Below are positions 19,409-24,370 of a DNA stretch of 40,378 nt, piece by piece. The translations under genes were made by a program, and so were the position numbers. The stretch comes from an uncultured bacterium. GTDB lineage: Bacteria; Chlamydiota; Chlamydiia; Chlamydiales; SM23-39. The first letter of the stretch is position 1, and the number at the start of each line of letters is the position of its first letter. The stretch is taken from positions 2,910 to 43,287 of the forward strand of contig CAZXVU010000002.1 in the NCBI GenBank assembly GCA_964644465.1. The letters are read 5' to 3'. The notes below the pieces were generated by a model. The model saw only the letters and a program-made list of their open reading frames with translations. It was not told the origin of the DNA and made no database searches.

Positions 19409-19430
19409 GTGCCAGTTTTGAGACTGGCAC
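19409..19430 (+). terminator. Hairpin after acpP (possible terminator shared with the convergent gene)
   Basis: GTGCCAGT-TTTGAG-ACTGGCAC forms a perfect 8-bp stem 9 nt after the acpP stop. The downstream T-tract is weak. Confidence 0.45.
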
Positions 19431-19484: not shown

Positions 19485-20021
19485 TTAAATAATTGGGTGC
19501 ATAGATTGATGTTTTGCAGCCCAATAAGAGATTTTTGCGAGTGTTTTATCGCTAAGGCCTGTCAATTCCTCTTCGAGAGCTTCAACAGTAGCGCCACCTT
19601 CCAAACGCTCAAAAGTGGCTTGCTTAAACTCTTTTTTTGCGGCTCGAGCTGCCATAACGGGTCTTGATTCTCTGGAAGCGAGGAAGGCTCTTTCAAAATC
19701 GGCGCAAGCGTTTTCAAATGATTTTGATTCACTTCCAACTTGAGGCTTTTTCAGTACCCACTCTTCGAATTTTTTGGCGGCTTTCTCTATTGCTAAAGGG
19801 TCTGCAAAATTATCATTCGCCAAATTATGGGTTCGAAAAATACTCATCCTAGTTCCAGGTTTCTGGATTTGATGAACAGTGAATGCTGTTTTCAGTTCCC
19901 CTTTTGCAGTTTTGTATGCGATGCCAGCTTCGGTTTGCCCTGCAGCGATTTTAGTTTGCTGGAAACGGGAAGCTAAATCAAAAAAAGAATTTGTTGCTGG
20001 ATGTGCCATAAGATACTCCAT
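19485..20021 (-). CDS. Hypothetical soluble protein (alpha-helical, charged)
   Basis: This is a 178-aa ORF with an alternative ATG at 20009. It has no TM segment and no motif I recognise. Coding status is inferred from length and non-overlap with neighbours. Confidence 0.5.
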   Translation of the reverse strand: MEYLMAHPATNSFFDLASRFQQTKIAAGQTEAGIAYKTAKGELKTAFTVHQIQKPGTRMSIFRTHNLANDNFADPLAIEKAAKKFEEWVLKKPQVGSESKSFENACADFERAFLASRESRPVMAARAAKKEFKQATFERLEGGATVEALEEELTGLSDKTLAKISYWAAKHQSMHPII

Positions 20022-20092: not shown

Positions 20093-20112
20093 AATCCTTG
20101 AAATCAAGGATT
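20093..20112 (-). terminator. Hairpin spanning the stop codon of the HAMP gene (possible operon terminator)
   Basis: The minus strand reads AATCCTTG-ATTT-CAAGGATT, a perfect 8-bp stem. The T-rich tail (TGTGGATTTAAAAAGTTTT) is not immediately adjacent. Confidence 0.35.
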
Positions 20113-21084
20113 GAGAATCTGGAAGCAGAGGAGATGGATGTCTTCTTCCAGGTCTTTCCGCTTGGTGGCGAAGGAGAGCTCTTTTTGGAGCATGGCGGAG
20201 ATGGTCTCGAGGCCGTCAGAGGCGAAGACTTTGAGCACTTTTGCGAGGAGGTCTTGGATTTTTTGGGGATCTTTGTAGAAACGGAGAAAGCCGCGATTAA
20301 AAAGGAAAAAGAAATCTCCTGAATCGACTTTGAGTGATCCTTTGACAGGATCTAGAAATTTTTCGTCGTCGAGAGACCAGAAGATCGGCAAGTGGGGCCC
20401 TTTGAGTTGGAGATTCGAGGAGTTGCGGTCGAAGAGAAGGGAAGTGTGGGTCTGGCTTTCTTTGGAGAGTTTATATTGGGTGAGGAGCTGATACATCCCT
20501 TCAAAACCCTCTTCTTCTGCCTCTGCCATGTGTACATGGAAATGATCAGCATGATCTGTTTTCGGAAAATCGAGAAGGAGCCCTTTCGGACTATCAGAAA
20601 AAAGCGTGATCGATTTTACTGCAACAGCGTCGGATCTGCAGTCATCGATATTTTTCTGCAGCATCATATGCTGGAGCAGCATAGCGCACTCGTATTCTCC
20701 GTACATTCGCTCGCGGACTAGGGAATTTTCCTTGAGGCGGTTGATGTTCTCGAGAAGGCATTCGCTCATTGTGTTCAACGTATTGGCCAGTTCTGCAATT
20801 TCTCTGGGGCCGTTTACATGGATCGATTCTCCATATTGGCCGGCTGCAATGGCCAGAGCGGAATTATTGAGCTTTTGAATCGGCCGGGAGATTTTATTGG
20901 CGATGACAAAGAGAGTGATCACAACGATCGGAATTGTTATCCCTGCGCAAACAAGGATCAGAAATAAGCTTTCGTGGAATTTGGGATCGCCATAGAGGTT
21001 GTAAGCGAGCAGCGAAGAGACAAGCGCGATGCTGCCAATGATCGTGGGAAGTAAAAAAAGCAACAGGCGGGTCCTGATTTTCAT
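20104..21084 (-). CDS. Membrane signalling protein: 2 TM, HAMP, and a degenerate PP2C/SpoIIE-like (RsbU-like) C-terminal domain
   Basis: Two TM helices flank a loop of only about 12 aa. The HAMP-like segment is ISRPIQKLNNSALAIAAGQYGESIHVNGPREIAELANTLNTMSECLLENINRL. The C-terminal approximately 200 aa follow the SpoIIE layout (AMLLQHMML..., HTSLLFDRNSSNLQLKGPHLPIF, VDSGDFFFLFNRGF, EEDIHLLCF), but the usual GDVxGHG and TDG acidic positions appear substituted. It has an ATGA overlap with the upstream gene. Confidence 0.6.
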   Translation of the reverse strand: MKIRTRLLLFLLPTIIGSIALVSSLLAYNLYGDPKFHESLFLILVCAGITIPIVVITLFVIANKISRPIQKLNNSALAIAAGQYGESIHVNGPREIAELANTLNTMSECLLENINRLKENSLVRERMYGEYECAMLLQHMMLQKNIDDCRSDAVAVKSITLFSDSPKGLLLDFPKTDHADHFHVHMAEAEEEGFEGMYQLLTQYKLSKESQTHTSLLFDRNSSNLQLKGPHLPIFWSLDDEKFLDPVKGSLKVDSGDFFFLFNRGFLRFYKDPQKIQDLLAKVLKVFASDGLETISAMLQKELSFATKRKDLEEDIHLLCFQILNP

Positions 21085-21515
21085 GCTAGGATCGAGACTC
21101 CTTTATGCCGGCACGGAAGCTGTTGAGAATAGGATTGGATCAAAGAGACAGCCACCGAAGGGCATTCAGAGATAATAGAAAGGAGATGGCTGCGGGAAAG
21201 GGTCAAAAAGAGGGTGTCGGTCTTACAAATAGCTGTATAGCCCCGAGACTGTTCATTGAAAAGGGATTCGTCTCCGAAATAATCATTGGAATGGAGTTCC
21301 GTAATGGGTTTCATCCGTTCGTCGAGAATCTGAACGGATCCATGTACAATGAGATAAATCCGATTGGCGACCTGGCCTGATGAAAAGACTTTTTCATTGG
21401 CGTCGTAGTCATCTTCATGAAGCTTTTCAGCAACTGCGAGGAGGATCTCGAGATCCAGCTCGTTGAAGAGCCGCAATTTTTTGAGGAAGAAAGCTTTTTC
21501 AATCAGACTTTTCAA
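21081..21515 (-). CDS. Stand-alone cyclic-nucleotide-binding (cNMP/CAP-effector) domain protein
   Basis: The 144-aa protein reads FFLKKLRLFNELDLEILLAVAEKL...VFSSGQVANRIYLIVHGSVQIL...NDYFGDESLF...SRGYTAIC..DTLFLTLSRSHLLSII, matching the cNMP-binding beta-roll pattern (FGE...R.A). The start is apparently TTG at 21515, overlapping the upstream stop. Confidence 0.8.
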   Translation of the reverse strand: MKSLIEKAFFLKKLRLFNELDLEILLAVAEKLHEDDYDANEKVFSSGQVANRIYLIVHGSVQILDERMKPITELHSNDYFGDESLFNEQSRGYTAICKTDTLFLTLSRSHLLSIISECPSVAVSLIQSYSQQLPCRHKGVSILA

Positions 21516-24370
21516 GGGCTCTCCAGGAGTTCGTAAGCAAATTGATGGAACGTTTCATCCGATTGTTTCATCTGCTCGCGCAGTTGCTGTTTCCAATTCG
21601 GCATTTGGAGTTTTGCTTTGAGCCGCACAGCGACAACCTTATCGAAAAGAGAAGGGGATTGCTCGAGCTTACCGAGGAGCTCTGATAGAGTCAGCTTCGG
21701 ATAATCTCCTTGCCAGCTAAGGCATGCTGCCATTTTTTCTTCGAGAGGCAAATCGTCGACAAGAGGTGCTATGAGGCGGAAAATACGGGCATCGCACGTT
21801 TTTTCAAGGCTTTCTACGGCGTGTGAGTGGACTTTTGCATTGCGGCTATGAAGCGCGCGTACGAGTAATTCCGGATCTTCCAACGATCCAGCGGCACCCA
21901 AAAGGTGGATGATGAAATCGATCACCGATTGATAGCCGGTAAGAAGGGCGCTCTGGAGCATCTCGAGATCGTGAAGGGGATGCTGATTTTGAATGGTGTG
22001 GCCGAAGTAGAAGTAGAAATAGGCCCGCTCAATCTCAATGTCCAGAATGTCGATCAAGTTTGCTTGCAGTTGAGGAAGCGCCAAGCGGCCTAAAATTTTT
22101 CCAGCTAAAATGCGCGCCCGTTCAGGGAGTGCGATATCTTTGGTCAGAGTCAAAAGAAGCGGAACGATTTTCAAGCCCATCTGGACGATGATTTCCTCTG
22201 TGCGGCGCCGCTCATTGGGTCTAAAGTGGACGCTGGCAAGAAGGATCTCTTTGATGGTGGTAGAATCGGCAATCTTGCCCAAGGCATCGATCAAGGAAAG
22301 GCGGAATGCATTATCGCGAGCCGCGCACAGTTCCTCAATAAGACGGGGAGCATGGCGGCTGAGACGCTTATCGGCGATGCGGGCTGTGCAGCGAGCTGCA
22401 GCTCTTTTCACGTGGACTGATTCGTGGGAAAGGAAGGGAAGTGCTTTTTCCGCAGCTTCAAGAGAGGCGTCTTCTGCGAGGATATCAAGGCCTAAACTGA
22501 TCTCGTCGATGAGGTTTGATTTCAGCATCAGATCGAGTTTTTTTGCGGCGATAGTACGATTTAGGGCCGCATAATCGAGCGATTGATTGGCGAGCGATTT
22601 TTTCATGGTTAAAATGGCTGCGCTGCGGAGCAAAAGATCGGGATGGTCGAGATCGTCTTCAGCTTTTTCTGGATGATGGAGGCCCCGTTTCGCAAGGTAA
22701 TAATTGGCCCATTTCGAGAGCTCGGGAGATTCGTTTTCATAGCTCCAGTTGTCGATCGCATCGATGACGCGAGAATCGCTGGCAAAAGAGCTCACTTCAA
22801 GGAGCTTTAGGAATTGAATTTTTGAATGGGTGCCGAAATGTCCAGCCACCTGAAGGATGCGGGGCAGTACGCTTTGATCTCCAAGCTGCAGGAGCGACTC
22901 GATCGCTAAAAGCTGCGTCTCTTCAGAATTGGATCGGAGCGAGTCCAGAATATCTTTTTTTGCCTCTTTTTGTTCGCGGCGGGTCATTGAGAAAAGCCAC
23001 CCTTTTAGTTTCCGCTCAAAATGGAGGGCATTGTCCTTTAAATTGATCATCAAAGCATTCGAGTAGATGGCCCGGATGATGAATGCGAGAACTAGGACGA
23101 TTAGAGTTAAAGTGAATCCCAGCCAGCGGCTTCCTGATTGAAGGCCGAATAGAAGAAGCGCGCTGAGAAGCATCCCGATCGGTTCAAAGAAGGAATCGTT
23201 TATGATCCGCACCTTCGATTTGAGTTTTGCAGGTACTGCATTGGAAAGGAGATTGAAACAGTTGTCTTCGACAGTAAATAATATCCCATCCACTGCGACA
23301 AGTCCAAGAACTGCAAAAAGCATCGCGTCGTGAAGGACCCACCCTGAATAGACCGCTGCAAAGAAGAGGGGAGTGATGAGGATTGCATTATTGAGTCCCA
23401 TCCGCCGTACAAACCGGCCGTAGAAAAATACCCCAAAAATGATATTGCAAAGAGAAATCAAGGCGCGGCATTTGCCTAAGAATTCTGCGATCTGACCTTC
23501 AGCAAGCTTTTCTCCGCTGGAGTGGAAAAAACGTCCAAAAGAATCCATGTAGTTGAATTCAGTCACGGTCAGCAAGAGTTGCACAAAAAGGCTTAAGCAA
23601 AGGAGGACAATGGCGAATTTTGACCGGACAATCAGCTGTACAACGGAAGAAAAAGAGTCGCGGCTGCCGGAAAAGACCCCTTCCATCGTATCGTCATGGA
23701 CGGCCTTGGATTTTAGGGCGATCCCTCTTGCTTGCGCCATTGCGAAAAGGATCGAAATAGCGGCGCAGATCAAAAGGCCGGAAAAGCCCACTTTGTCCAA
23801 TAAAAGATTGATCGCCGTTCCAGATAGAATGGATCCAAAGAAATAGGCGGCGCTATAGATAGAATAGACCCTTTTGGCGTCTTGCAAGTCGTGATATTGG
23901 TCGGTAAAAGTCCAAGAGCAGGCGATCATGACTGCAAAGAACATTCTAGAGGCGATTTTCAAGGCGTAAAAAAACCAGACCGGAGGGGATGTCCCGACGA
24001 AAAAAGCCGCCGCAGCGCAGATGAGAACGCCAAAGCCTAAAGAAAAAATTAAAATCCGGTATGGGCTTGTGACTCGCAGGCTATAGAGGACCAGCGTCGA
24101 AACGCCGATCATCCCTAAAGCGATCGAAAGGTAGACCCTCGGCAGGAATTCCGCCCCGATTTTTTCAAGGAAAAGGCCATCGGATAGAGTATCTAGGCAA
24201 GAGCTTCCAAAAGCCCATAGGATCGCCAGGCGGGCAAATCTAAAGGCATGGCTGCCTTCGCCCGAATAAATCCCAAAAACCTTACGAAATATTCTTTGCA
24301 ACATCTCTCTAATAAAGTCCTTATAAAAGGTTAAATCCATTGTACGGCAATGGAGATTTTTCTCTACCAT
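21512..24370 (-). CDS. Polytopic NTT(TLC)/MFS-like transporter fused to a C-terminal HEAT-repeat domain
   Basis: The N-terminal approximately 450 aa contain about 11-12 hydrophobic helices. Their start, FRFARLAILWAFGSSCLDTLSDGLFLEKIGAEFLPRVYL, resembles the start of ATP/ADP-translocase-like carriers. The C-terminal approximately 480 aa are repeated helical pairs of HEAT/PBS-lyase type (e.g. VHVKRAAARCTARIAD, AFRLSLIDALGKIAD, AKVHSHAVESLEK). Confidence 0.65.
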   Translation of the reverse strand: MVEKNLHCRTMDLTFYKDFIREMLQRIFRKVFGIYSGEGSHAFRFARLAILWAFGSSCLDTLSDGLFLEKIGAEFLPRVYLSIALGMIGVSTLVLYSLRVTSPYRILIFSLGFGVLICAAAAFFVGTSPPVWFFYALKIASRMFFAVMIACSWTFTDQYHDLQDAKRVYSIYSAAYFFGSILSGTAINLLLDKVGFSGLLICAAISILFAMAQARGIALKSKAVHDDTMEGVFSGSRDSFSSVVQLIVRSKFAIVLLCLSLFVQLLLTVTEFNYMDSFGRFFHSSGEKLAEGQIAEFLGKCRALISLCNIIFGVFFYGRFVRRMGLNNAILITPLFFAAVYSGWVLHDAMLFAVLGLVAVDGILFTVEDNCFNLLSNAVPAKLKSKVRIINDSFFEPIGMLLSALLLFGLQSGSRWLGFTLTLIVLVLAFIIRAIYSNALMINLKDNALHFERKLKGWLFSMTRREQKEAKKDILDSLRSNSEETQLLAIESLLQLGDQSVLPRILQVAGHFGTHSKIQFLKLLEVSSFASDSRVIDAIDNWSYENESPELSKWANYYLAKRGLHHPEKAEDDLDHPDLLLRSAAILTMKKSLANQSLDYAALNRTIAAKKLDLMLKSNLIDEISLGLDILAEDASLEAAEKALPFLSHESVHVKRAAARCTARIADKRLSRHAPRLIEELCAARDNAFRLSLIDALGKIADSTTIKEILLASVHFRPNERRRTEEIIVQMGLKIVPLLLTLTKDIALPERARILAGKILGRLALPQLQANLIDILDIEIERAYFYFYFGHTIQNQHPLHDLEMLQSALLTGYQSVIDFIIHLLGAAGSLEDPELLVRALHSRNAKVHSHAVESLEKTCDARIFRLIAPLVDDLPLEEKMAACLSWQGDYPKLTLSELLGKLEQSPSLFDKVVAVRLKAKLQMPNWKQQLREQMKQSDETFHQFAYELLESP

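Follow-up and report, generated by a model that had tools for sequence, protein, structure and literature searches.

Nucleotide transporters (NTTs) are a hallmark of energy parasitism in Chlamydiae, and the closest described relatives of the locus analysed here belong to a branch of these carriers that is fused to HEAT repeats. [quoted passage not shown] The same authors describe three-domain NTT-HEAT-cNBD fusions, with fused and adjacent forms across phyla, report a single NTT-HEAT gene in Chlamydia trachomatis that is conserved across the Chlamydiaceae, and speculate that cAMP binding tunes the uptake of ATP or nucleotides. Conserved in pathogenic chlamydiae, the branch has stood out since 2017 as one of no known function; a marine-sediment chlamydiae preprint analysed the same clade. 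The passages of the two sources that were available mention no third gene, and our literature search found no functional study of the NTT-HEAT/cNBD system. Searches with CT234, CT235, CTL0486 and CTL0487 returned almost only unrelated papers, apart from an iron-starvation table in which CTL0486 is a ‘putative membrane transport protein'.

Here we describe a three-gene version of this system on a 40,378-nt stretch of contig CAZXVU010000002.1 (assembly GCA_964644465.1, an uncultured member of the Chlamydiota), which we refer to in its entirety as the window. Gene 1 (21512–24370, minus strand; 952 aa as the longest open reading frame, ORF) encodes the carrier with its HEAT tail, gene 2 (21081–21515, minus strand; 144 aa from a TTG start) a lone cyclic-nucleotide-binding (CNB) domain, and gene 3 (20104–21084, minus strand; 326 aa) a protein with two transmembrane (TM) helices, a HAMP domain and a pseudo-PP2C domain, in a ‘short form' that lacks a periplasmic domain. 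Genes 1 and 2 are the system described in PMC5381601, sharing the PF03219 domain, the C-terminal HEAT repeats and the cNBD gene, whereas the locus analysed here adds a HAMP/pseudo-PP2C membrane protein that is translationally coupled downstream and with which the HEAT tail co-varies. Genes 1 and 2 are therefore an already known, uncharacterised system, while gene 3 appears to be undescribed; when the literature was searched specifically for a HAMP pseudo-phosphatase of chlamydiae, only studies of RsbU and CT589 came up. New here are the strictly linked third subunit, seen in Chlamydiota-type genomes only, its character as a pseudo-enzyme, the recurrent disappearance of its sensor domain, and a HEAT patch that tracks its presence. 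We favour, with a probability of roughly one half, a single inner-membrane assembly in which genes 2 and 3 control carrier activity by way of the HEAT solenoid of gene 1. A sequence-only reading of this DNA had called the system uncharacterised and its function unassigned. The absence of an assigned function stands, in agreement with the 2017 paper; the NTT-HEAT and cNBD pair and the idea of cAMP-tuned uptake, however, are already present there.

The three minus-strand genes are chained by overlapping stop and start codons, as the sequence-only reading had claimed, and a base-by-base reading of that strand shows both 4-nt overlaps to be exact. At the gene 1/gene 2 junction (TTGA, 21512–21515) the TTG start of gene 2 occupies 21515–21513 and the TGA stop of gene 1 occupies 21514–21512; at the gene 2/gene 3 junction (ATGA, 21081–21084) the ATG start of gene 3 occupies 21084–21082 and the TGA stop of gene 2 occupies 21083–21081. 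GGAG sequences lie 5 nt and 13 nt upstream of the internal starts of genes 2 and 3. Among 72 distinct related loci, 58 have a 4-nt overlap between genes 1 and 2 (ATGA in 56, GTGA in 2), and such an overlap joins genes 2 and 3 in 50 of 56 loci (43 ATGA, 6 TTGA and 1 GTGA). The remaining junctions are overlaps or gaps of about 40 nt or less, with a few exceptions that come from uncertain start calls or one disrupted gene. This geometry is kept over the 72 loci, down to 37% identity in gene 1; the overlaps are not due to chance, and translational coupling is tight. A simple scan found no terminator-like hairpin within or between the three genes.

We traced the distribution of gene 3 by a phmmer search of its 215-aa C-terminal part against 1.84 billion representative proteins (E ≤ 1e-3). 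The family comprises 130 clusters at 50% identity, all of proteins of 300–550 aa with the domain at the C-terminus. Every named member comes from a metagenome-assembled genome (MAG) labelled Chlamydiota, Chlamydiales, Parachlamydiales or, in a few cases, ‘Verrucomicrobia', and is annotated as ‘HAMP domain-containing protein' or ‘hypothetical'; an occurrence of gene 3 in cyanobacteria, raised by the sequence-only reading, is thus not borne out. The 150-odd related loci are likewise all from MAGs, labelled Chlamydiota, Chlamydiales or Parachlamydiales and in a few cases ‘Verrucomicrobia' or ‘bacterium', and the genes under these last two labels are 75–80% identical to those of the window.

Linkage of the three genes is strict when viewed from gene 3. 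Where a gene-3-seeded locus has room upstream, genes 2 and 1 stand immediately upstream in 43 of 43 cases, four further loci that end at contig edges upstream being outside this count; these loci were retrieved with a pattern from the narrower C-terminal alignment (A4), the more diverse alignment (A3) having no conserved stretch. Gene 3 shows a strict dependence on genes 1 and 2 as a pair, and the three genes are co-conserved as the sequence-only reading had proposed. Viewed from gene 1, most loci have gene 3 after gene 2, among them a Waddlia-labelled MAG (gene 1 44% identical), a Parachlamydiaceae clade (41–44%) and other deep branches. Gene 2 directly follows gene 1 in every related locus with room for it, and the cNBD is a separate gene in 72 of 72 chlamydial loci examined, making the split arrangement the norm and not a peculiarity of this locus.

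In a neighbour-joining tree of gene 1, gene-3-positive loci occur in every major clade, while loci without gene 3 fall into one clade and, scattered elsewhere, at least four further lineages. The parsimonious reading of this tree is that the three-gene operon is probably ancestral and that gene 3 was lost at least five times. The negative clade holds the only Chlamydiaceae-labelled MAG, in which the gene order (locus L108) is g1-g2-acpP-fabG-fabD-fabH-recR. This order matches what we take to be the CT234–CT240 order of C. trachomatis, and by the L108 synteny CT234 and CT235 are presumably the orthologues of genes 1 and 2.

Two irregular loci were seen in this survey. On CAVQKJ010000004.1 (L046/L111), gene 1 is matched in fragments, with residues 98–311 and then a gap of 1.9 kb up to gene 2; the other two genes look intact, and gene 1 is either disrupted or affected by assembly frameshift errors. 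On CAVWGN010000001.1 (L091/L157), a MAG of the Parachlamydiaceae clade labelled ‘uncultured Chlamydiae bacterium', a 381-aa gene 3 homologue aligns over query residues 42–184 only, which suggests that its C-terminal domain is truncated or rearranged.

The membrane part of gene 3 agrees with the two TM helices and HAMP domain of the sequence-only reading. The helices span residues 8–26 and 43–61 with a 16-aa loop between them, and the HAMP domain (residues 61–108; 20761–20904, minus strand; Pfam PF00672, E 3e-11), the one domain of gene 3 that Pfam recognises, follows directly after the second helix. An NCBIfam SiaA model covers residues 51–147. Many NCBIfam ‘histidine kinase' models also match gene 3; these matches span the TM2-HAMP region only and carry no information about a kinase.

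Residues 112–326 (20107–20751, minus strand) form, in an AlphaFold2 (AF2) model and by Foldseek, a linker helix and a PP2C-fold domain. A fold search was needed because sequence searches of the PDB gave HAMP or non-significant matches: the gene 3 profile matched the HAMP regions of Tsr and NarQ, with the full-length profile giving HAMP matches only, and with the C-terminal profile SpoIIE came up at E 0.5, which is not significant, along with one spurious match to a TNF ligand. The AF2 model (mf64380381318), built on 54 homologues, has a predicted local distance difference test score (pLDDT) of ~70–92 over most of residues 131–326, with one dip near 201–210. Its Foldseek matches have a probability of 1.00 and E values of 3e-7 to 1e-6 and are all of the bacterial PPM fold: the RsbU domain of Rv1364c (3ke6, E 3e-7), the C-terminal domain of RssB (3f79), the PP2C domain of SiaA (6k4e), SpoIIE (5ucg) and RsbX (3w40). 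The RsbU-like pseudo-PP2C domain of the sequence-only reading is thus recovered at the level of the fold, with no SpoIIE match at the level of sequence. Pfam SpoIIE (PF07228) was above threshold in none of 33 gene 3 family members, in a scan that covered the window protein, ten diverse homologues, 23 C-terminal domains (best E 0.2) and the ten most distant representatives.

We mapped the catalytic motifs of RsbU and SpoIIE, as we understand them, onto gene 3, and the weak SpoIIE alignment, which sets ‘MSDGI' against ‘FNRGF' of gene 3, agrees with this mapping. The presumed ‘GD' motif falls on G168-L169, ‘DxSGHG' on E188-A-E-E-E-G193, ‘AGHxPP' on G-P-H-L-P in the family and ‘TDG' on N263-R/Q-G265, while what we take to be the terminal ‘DD' corresponds to E314-D315, an Asp that is not conserved in members of the Parachlamydiaceae clade. 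The invariant E188 stands at or near the position of the Asp in ‘DxSGHG'. Because no member matches a Pfam phosphatase model and the metal-binding aspartates are gone, the C-terminus of gene 3 is, on the predicted fold and this mapping, a PP2C-fold pseudo-phosphatase and should not be filed as a phosphatase.

The best-conserved stretch of gene 3 is the helix that joins HAMP to the PP2C-fold domain (RERMYGEYEC..LLQ), which suggests that a HAMP-driven conformational switch outlasted the loss of catalysis. Long homologues (409–525 aa) carry a domain of ~100–200 aa between the TM helices with weak sCache/dCache matches. Across 56 loci we counted 20 short, 5 intermediate and 31 long forms, interleaved on the tree and with differing deletion boundaries, implying that the periplasmic, Cache-like domain was deleted about eight times independently, the window included. 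HAMP, linker and pseudo-PP2C domain are conserved despite these deletions; on this pattern the periplasmic sensor domain is evolutionarily dispensable and the cytoplasmic core, with HAMP and pseudo-PP2C domain, is not.

Several described proteins share part of this architecture. Chlamydial RsbU (CT588) and CT589 resemble the long gene 3 forms in being membrane-spanning, with a periplasmic domain and a cytoplasmic PP2C fold, and RsbU also has a HAMP linker; CT589, a membrane-spanning RsbU paralogue of C. trachomatis, resembles gene 3 further in lacking the metal-coordinating residues (PMC4552016), and it has been proposed to interact with RsbU or to sequester RsbV1/2 (PMC4552016, PMC5177608). 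In contrast to gene 3, whose family passes no Pfam SpoIIE threshold, RsbU and CT589 are recognised by an InterPro PP2C model, and they occupy the neighbouring locus numbers ct588/ct589, whereas gene 3 always stands behind the NTT-HEAT/cNBD pair. The phmmer search returned small MAG-derived clusters only and no cluster of the size that the Chlamydiaceae would give for CT589, which argues against a close relationship between the two proteins, a remote paralogy being still conceivable. SiaA of P. aeruginosa shares the HAMP-helix-PP2C layout and, through 6k4e, the fold, but is an active phosphatase on SiaC and has no transporter link. RssB (3f79) sets a precedent for a PP2C-fold domain that binds without catalysis; unlike gene 3, it is a soluble response-regulator adaptor for ClpXP, again with no transporter link.

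Gene 1 carries a trace of gene 3 in its HEAT tail. At five positions, R605, L733, V736, Q767 and Y946, conservation reaches at least 96% across 47 gene-3-positive sequences, and three of them (L733, V736 and Q767) are invariant in all 47, the Waddlia and Parachlamydiaceae-clade sequences included. In most of the 11 gene-3-negative sequences, the product of at least five independent losses, other and varied residues stand at these five positions, and the change extends to recent independent losers nested among positives (L028, L031, L032, L097, L087 and L101). No gene 1 position shows the reverse pattern, no gene 2 position was found to track its presence, and a control partition with deep gene-3-positive clades as the outgroup gave one position. 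Conserved alongside gene 3 and changed in most lineages without it, these residues are most simply explained as constrained by gene 3, and the patch is most likely its contact surface.

The sequence-only reading of gene 1 as an NTT/TLC-like carrier fused to HEAT repeats holds up. Pfam TLC (PF03219) matches residues 132–338 with 25.6 bits against a cut-off of 21 and HEAT_2 (PF13646) matches residues 642–724 with 32.1 bits against a cut-off of 27.7, while MFS_1 stays slightly under its cut-off. In the AF2 model (m730c33766fa1; mean pLDDT 72.9), which agrees with hydropathy, residues ~38–447 (23030–24259, minus strand) form a membrane domain of 12 helices with an NTT-type fold of the major facilitator superfamily (MFS), and from ~455 to 950 (21521–23008, minus strand) there are only helical hairpins, a predicted cytoplasmic alpha-solenoid of HEAT/PBS-type repeats to which Pfam, profile, AF2 and Foldseek all point. 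The tail measures about 510–517 aa, so that the fusion stands and the first estimate of ~480 aa does not. The top three PDB matches in Foldseek are AtNTT1 9j3m (E 2e-7, TM-score TMt 0.68), AtNTT1 9j3l and C. pneumoniae NTT1 9j3n; these three NTT structures, at E 2e-7 to 1e-6 and TMt 0.63–0.68, rank above other MFS transporters. The tail resembles the PP2A A subunit and Scc2 in Foldseek, and its profile matches alphaRep/HEAT proteins down to E 5e-12.

By sequence, the profile of the membrane domain has a single PDB match, again C. pneumoniae NTT1 (9j3n, E 3.6e-5), and the conserved segment WTF.DQYHDLQDAKRVYSLY pairs in the profile alignment with the segment WGFANEITKIHEAKRFYALF of that protein. 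The NTT motif region W-G-F-A-N-E ... E-A-K-R-F-Y is thereby present in gene 1, with W153, F155, K166 and R167 invariant across homologue alignments A2, A5 and A6 and Y169 invariant or nearly so. Many homologues carry a precomputed PF03219 match, and their public names include ‘MFS transporter', ‘Npt1/Npt2 family nucleotide transporter', ‘ATP/ADP translocase' and ‘HEAT repeat protein'. Sequence and model together make gene 1 a divergent carrier of the NTT/TLC family, MFS in fold and extended by a HEAT tail. Like the canonical NTT ATP/ADP translocases (9j3n, 9j3l, 9j3m; C. trachomatis Npt1/Npt2), it has a 12-helix MFS-type fold and the W-x-F...AKR-x-Y region; it differs from them in its identity of less than 20%, its cytoplasmic HEAT tail of ~510 aa and its membership of a separate, uncharacterised NTT clade.

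The start of gene 1 probably lies further downstream than the longest ORF suggests. Nearly all homologues begin at the residue aligned with M23, and the ATG at 24304 is probably the true start, giving a protein of ~930 aa; the 952 aa of the sequence-only reading are correct for the ORF and ~22 residues too long for the likely protein. The 22-codon extension (24304–24370, minus strand) contains a sigma-70-like promoter match (TAGAGA-16-TACAAT, 24339–24366, minus strand) that was found by consensus scan only; it lies upstream of the probable start, a position that would fit initiation at 24304.

The sequence-only reading also had gene 2 as a bare CNB domain, and Pfam cNMP_binding (PF00027) matches it at E 2.3e-15, with 56.8 bits against a cut-off of 27.5. 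In the PDB, the sequences nearest to it are CNB-D domains, from apicomplexan PKG (E 1.7e-16) and from PKA R subunits. Alignment to PKG places the phosphate-binding cassette at F80–A95, FGDESLFNEQSRGYTA (21231–21278, minus strand), where ‘FGDESLFNEQSRGYT' of gene 2 aligns with ‘FGERALLYDEPRTAS' of PKG. Over 73 family sequences the cassette consensus is FGDEsLFNe.pR.Y.A; FGDE, Arg and Tyr are nearly invariant in it, and the position that follows the Arg varies. Compared with the canonical F-G-E-x-A-L...R-[ST]-A, Gly81 and Arg91 are kept, the Glu is replaced by Asp82 with a conserved Glu83 next to it, the [ST] position is Gly in the window and variable in the family, and the canonical Ala is replaced by a nearly invariant Tyr93. 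As far as conservation can tell, the site is strongly constrained yet not a textbook cAMP/cGMP cassette, and gene 2 likely binds a phosphate-bearing ligand. The C-terminal tail of gene 2 (residues ~113–137; 21081–21180, minus strand) is conserved like the ligand site, with the pattern LSRSHLLSIISECPSVAV..L..Y...LPCR and two nearly invariant cysteines (in ECP and PCR), and could be a docking or redox element.

In the mechanism that we favour, genes 1–3 would be a single operon, and the proteins that they encode would come together at the chlamydial inner membrane, with the ~510-aa HEAT solenoid of gene 1 as the docking platform. Gene 2 would bind a small phosphate-bearing cytosolic ligand, most likely a cyclic nucleotide, and act on gene 1 in trans, as the counterpart of the CNB domain that other phyla carry fused onto the HEAT tail's end. 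Gene 3 would be of the dimeric-sensor type, with two TM helices, an ancestral periplasmic Cache-like domain, HAMP, a signalling helix and a PP2C fold that is predicted to be unable to dephosphorylate because the metal-binding aspartates have been lost. The state of its HAMP switch may instead reach the carrier when gene 3 docks on the C-terminal half of the solenoid, near residues 605, 733–767 and 946. Carrier activity would then be set jointly by two inputs, one cytosolic and nucleotide-borne through gene 2, the other from the envelope or membrane through gene 3. Observed in this scheme are the domain identities and folds, the missing catalytic motifs, the conserved geometry of the junctions, the strict linkage and the co-variation of gene 3 with the HEAT patch; that the proteins form a complex, which way regulation runs, what gene 1 transports and what gene 2 binds are the parts that we infer.

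Several points weigh against this mechanism. Gene 1 is less than 20% identical to characterised NTTs and a single motif region can be aligned by sequence, and for this reason its substrate could be something other than a nucleotide. The cassette of gene 2 is non-canonical, and its ligand may be neither cAMP nor cGMP. Because lineages without gene 3 keep genes 1 and 2 intact, gene 3 is accessory and not essential to the core function. The co-variation counts are not corrected for phylogeny, and the gene-3-negative set behind them is small (n=11). Lastly, the retention of E188 makes some residual metal binding conceivable.

The RsbU-type fold of gene 3 could be taken to mean that the module is a signalling device, in which genes 1 and 2 sense nucleotide or energy status and signal through the HEAT tail to gene 3, and gene 3 sequesters phospho-RsbV or RsbU, tying sigma-factor availability to the host's nucleotide supply. 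The closest folds in Foldseek are indeed RsbU-type phosphatases, the helix before the PP2C domain is kept with its RERMYGEYEC...LLQ segment invariant, and both CT589 and the RssB domain, a pure binding module, offer precedents. We nevertheless regard this arrangement, the main rival to the regulated carrier, as unlikely. Within the window, the operon and its immediate surroundings hold no RsbV, RsbW or STAS gene, and the neighbours tested gave no Pfam match to RsbV (STAS) or RsbW (HATPase); the co-variation marks the HEAT tail of gene 1, and not an external protein, as the partner of gene 3; and the gene 3 family has no detectable sequence link to a large cluster of Chlamydiaceae size. According to Domman & Horn (PMC4652624), environmental chlamydiae have moreover lost RsbU and RsbV while keeping RsbV2, RsbW and an ‘RsbU2'. 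The sequence-only reading had spoken of a junction with a partner-switching-type module, and this part goes too far: what remains is the RsbU fold, with its catalytic residues gone and neither RsbV nor RsbW in the locus. An extended version, in which an ancestral ‘nucleotide-status transceptor' formed by genes 1 and 2 reports host nucleotide or energy supply via the HEAT tail to the pseudo-RsbU, which titrates partner-switching components and so gates sigma-66 and developmental timing, with CT589 as a relocated descendant of gene 3, is more doubtful still and is offered as speculation.

Were the three genes together for historical reasons only, gene 3 would be an independent HAMP sensor whose output does not concern genes 1 and 2. 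Operons in bacteria can combine functions that have nothing to do with one another, and gene 3 was lost repeatedly without loss of its neighbours; against this stand the 43 of 43 linkage across deep chlamydial clades, the conserved 4-nt start/stop overlap, the relaxation of specific HEAT residues upon gene 3 loss and the absence of gene 3 from any other genomic position among the loci examined, which together leave such a history improbable. Least probable of all, in our judgement, is that gene 3 is still an atypical phosphatase acting on gene 1 or gene 2 through a non-canonical metal site, for example E188 with D257. E188 is invariant and D257 nearly so across the family, but three of the four canonical Asp positions (G-L, N-R/Q-G and the last Asp) are non-acidic or not conserved family-wide, no member rises above the Pfam SpoIIE threshold, and D257 falls, by our own mapping, on what we take to be the ‘pGD' position. 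In true PP2Cs of the PPM family this Asp is structural and is no metal ligand. An Asp-to-Glu change at one metal site has been deemed compatible with metal binding in CT259 (Cpp1), which speaks for such a site, and CT259 did not dephosphorylate RsbV1 or RsbV2 (PMC4552016).

The regulated-carrier assembly, by comparison, supplies experimental handles in the form of the third subunit and the predicted HEAT contact patch: four or five mutable residues, a candidate binding partner and cultivable hosts such as Waddlia. Gene 3 would also be a second, independent membrane-anchored pseudo-enzyme of PP2C fold in the Chlamydiota beside CT589. If it is true that the module links nucleotide import to signalling, it bears on how chlamydiae sense the energy supply of their host.

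The surroundings of the operon show chlamydial core synteny, with fabH-fabD-fabG on the plus strand (by sequence), BamA and RecR. Together with the labels of the related loci, this places the window in an environmental chlamydia. Pfam identified proC-like and thioredoxin-reductase-like genes among the other neighbours, and two of the ORFs tested had no Pfam match. The first terminator-like hairpin downstream of the operon lies at 19409–19430 (minus strand), beyond an unrelated 178-aa ORF (19485–20021, minus strand). This ORF, directly downstream of gene 3, was considered as a fourth member of the module and rejected: it has no homologue in 46 related loci, no Pfam or NCBIfam match and a promoter-like site of its own (20066–20038). 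It has no predicted TM helix and looks like a lineage-specific orphan outside the module.

Elsewhere in the window, a two-partner-secretion (TPS) pair consists of a TpsB transporter of the ShlB/FhaC type (105–1826, plus strand; 573 aa) and, on the opposite strand, a 1441-aa partner with an N-terminal TPS secretion domain (1841–6166, minus strand). A 268-aa ORF at 27203–28009 (plus strand) has a signal-peptide-like sequence at its N-terminus, no Pfam match and a 4-nt overlap with the end of the thioredoxin-reductase-like gene, and may encode an outer-membrane protein.

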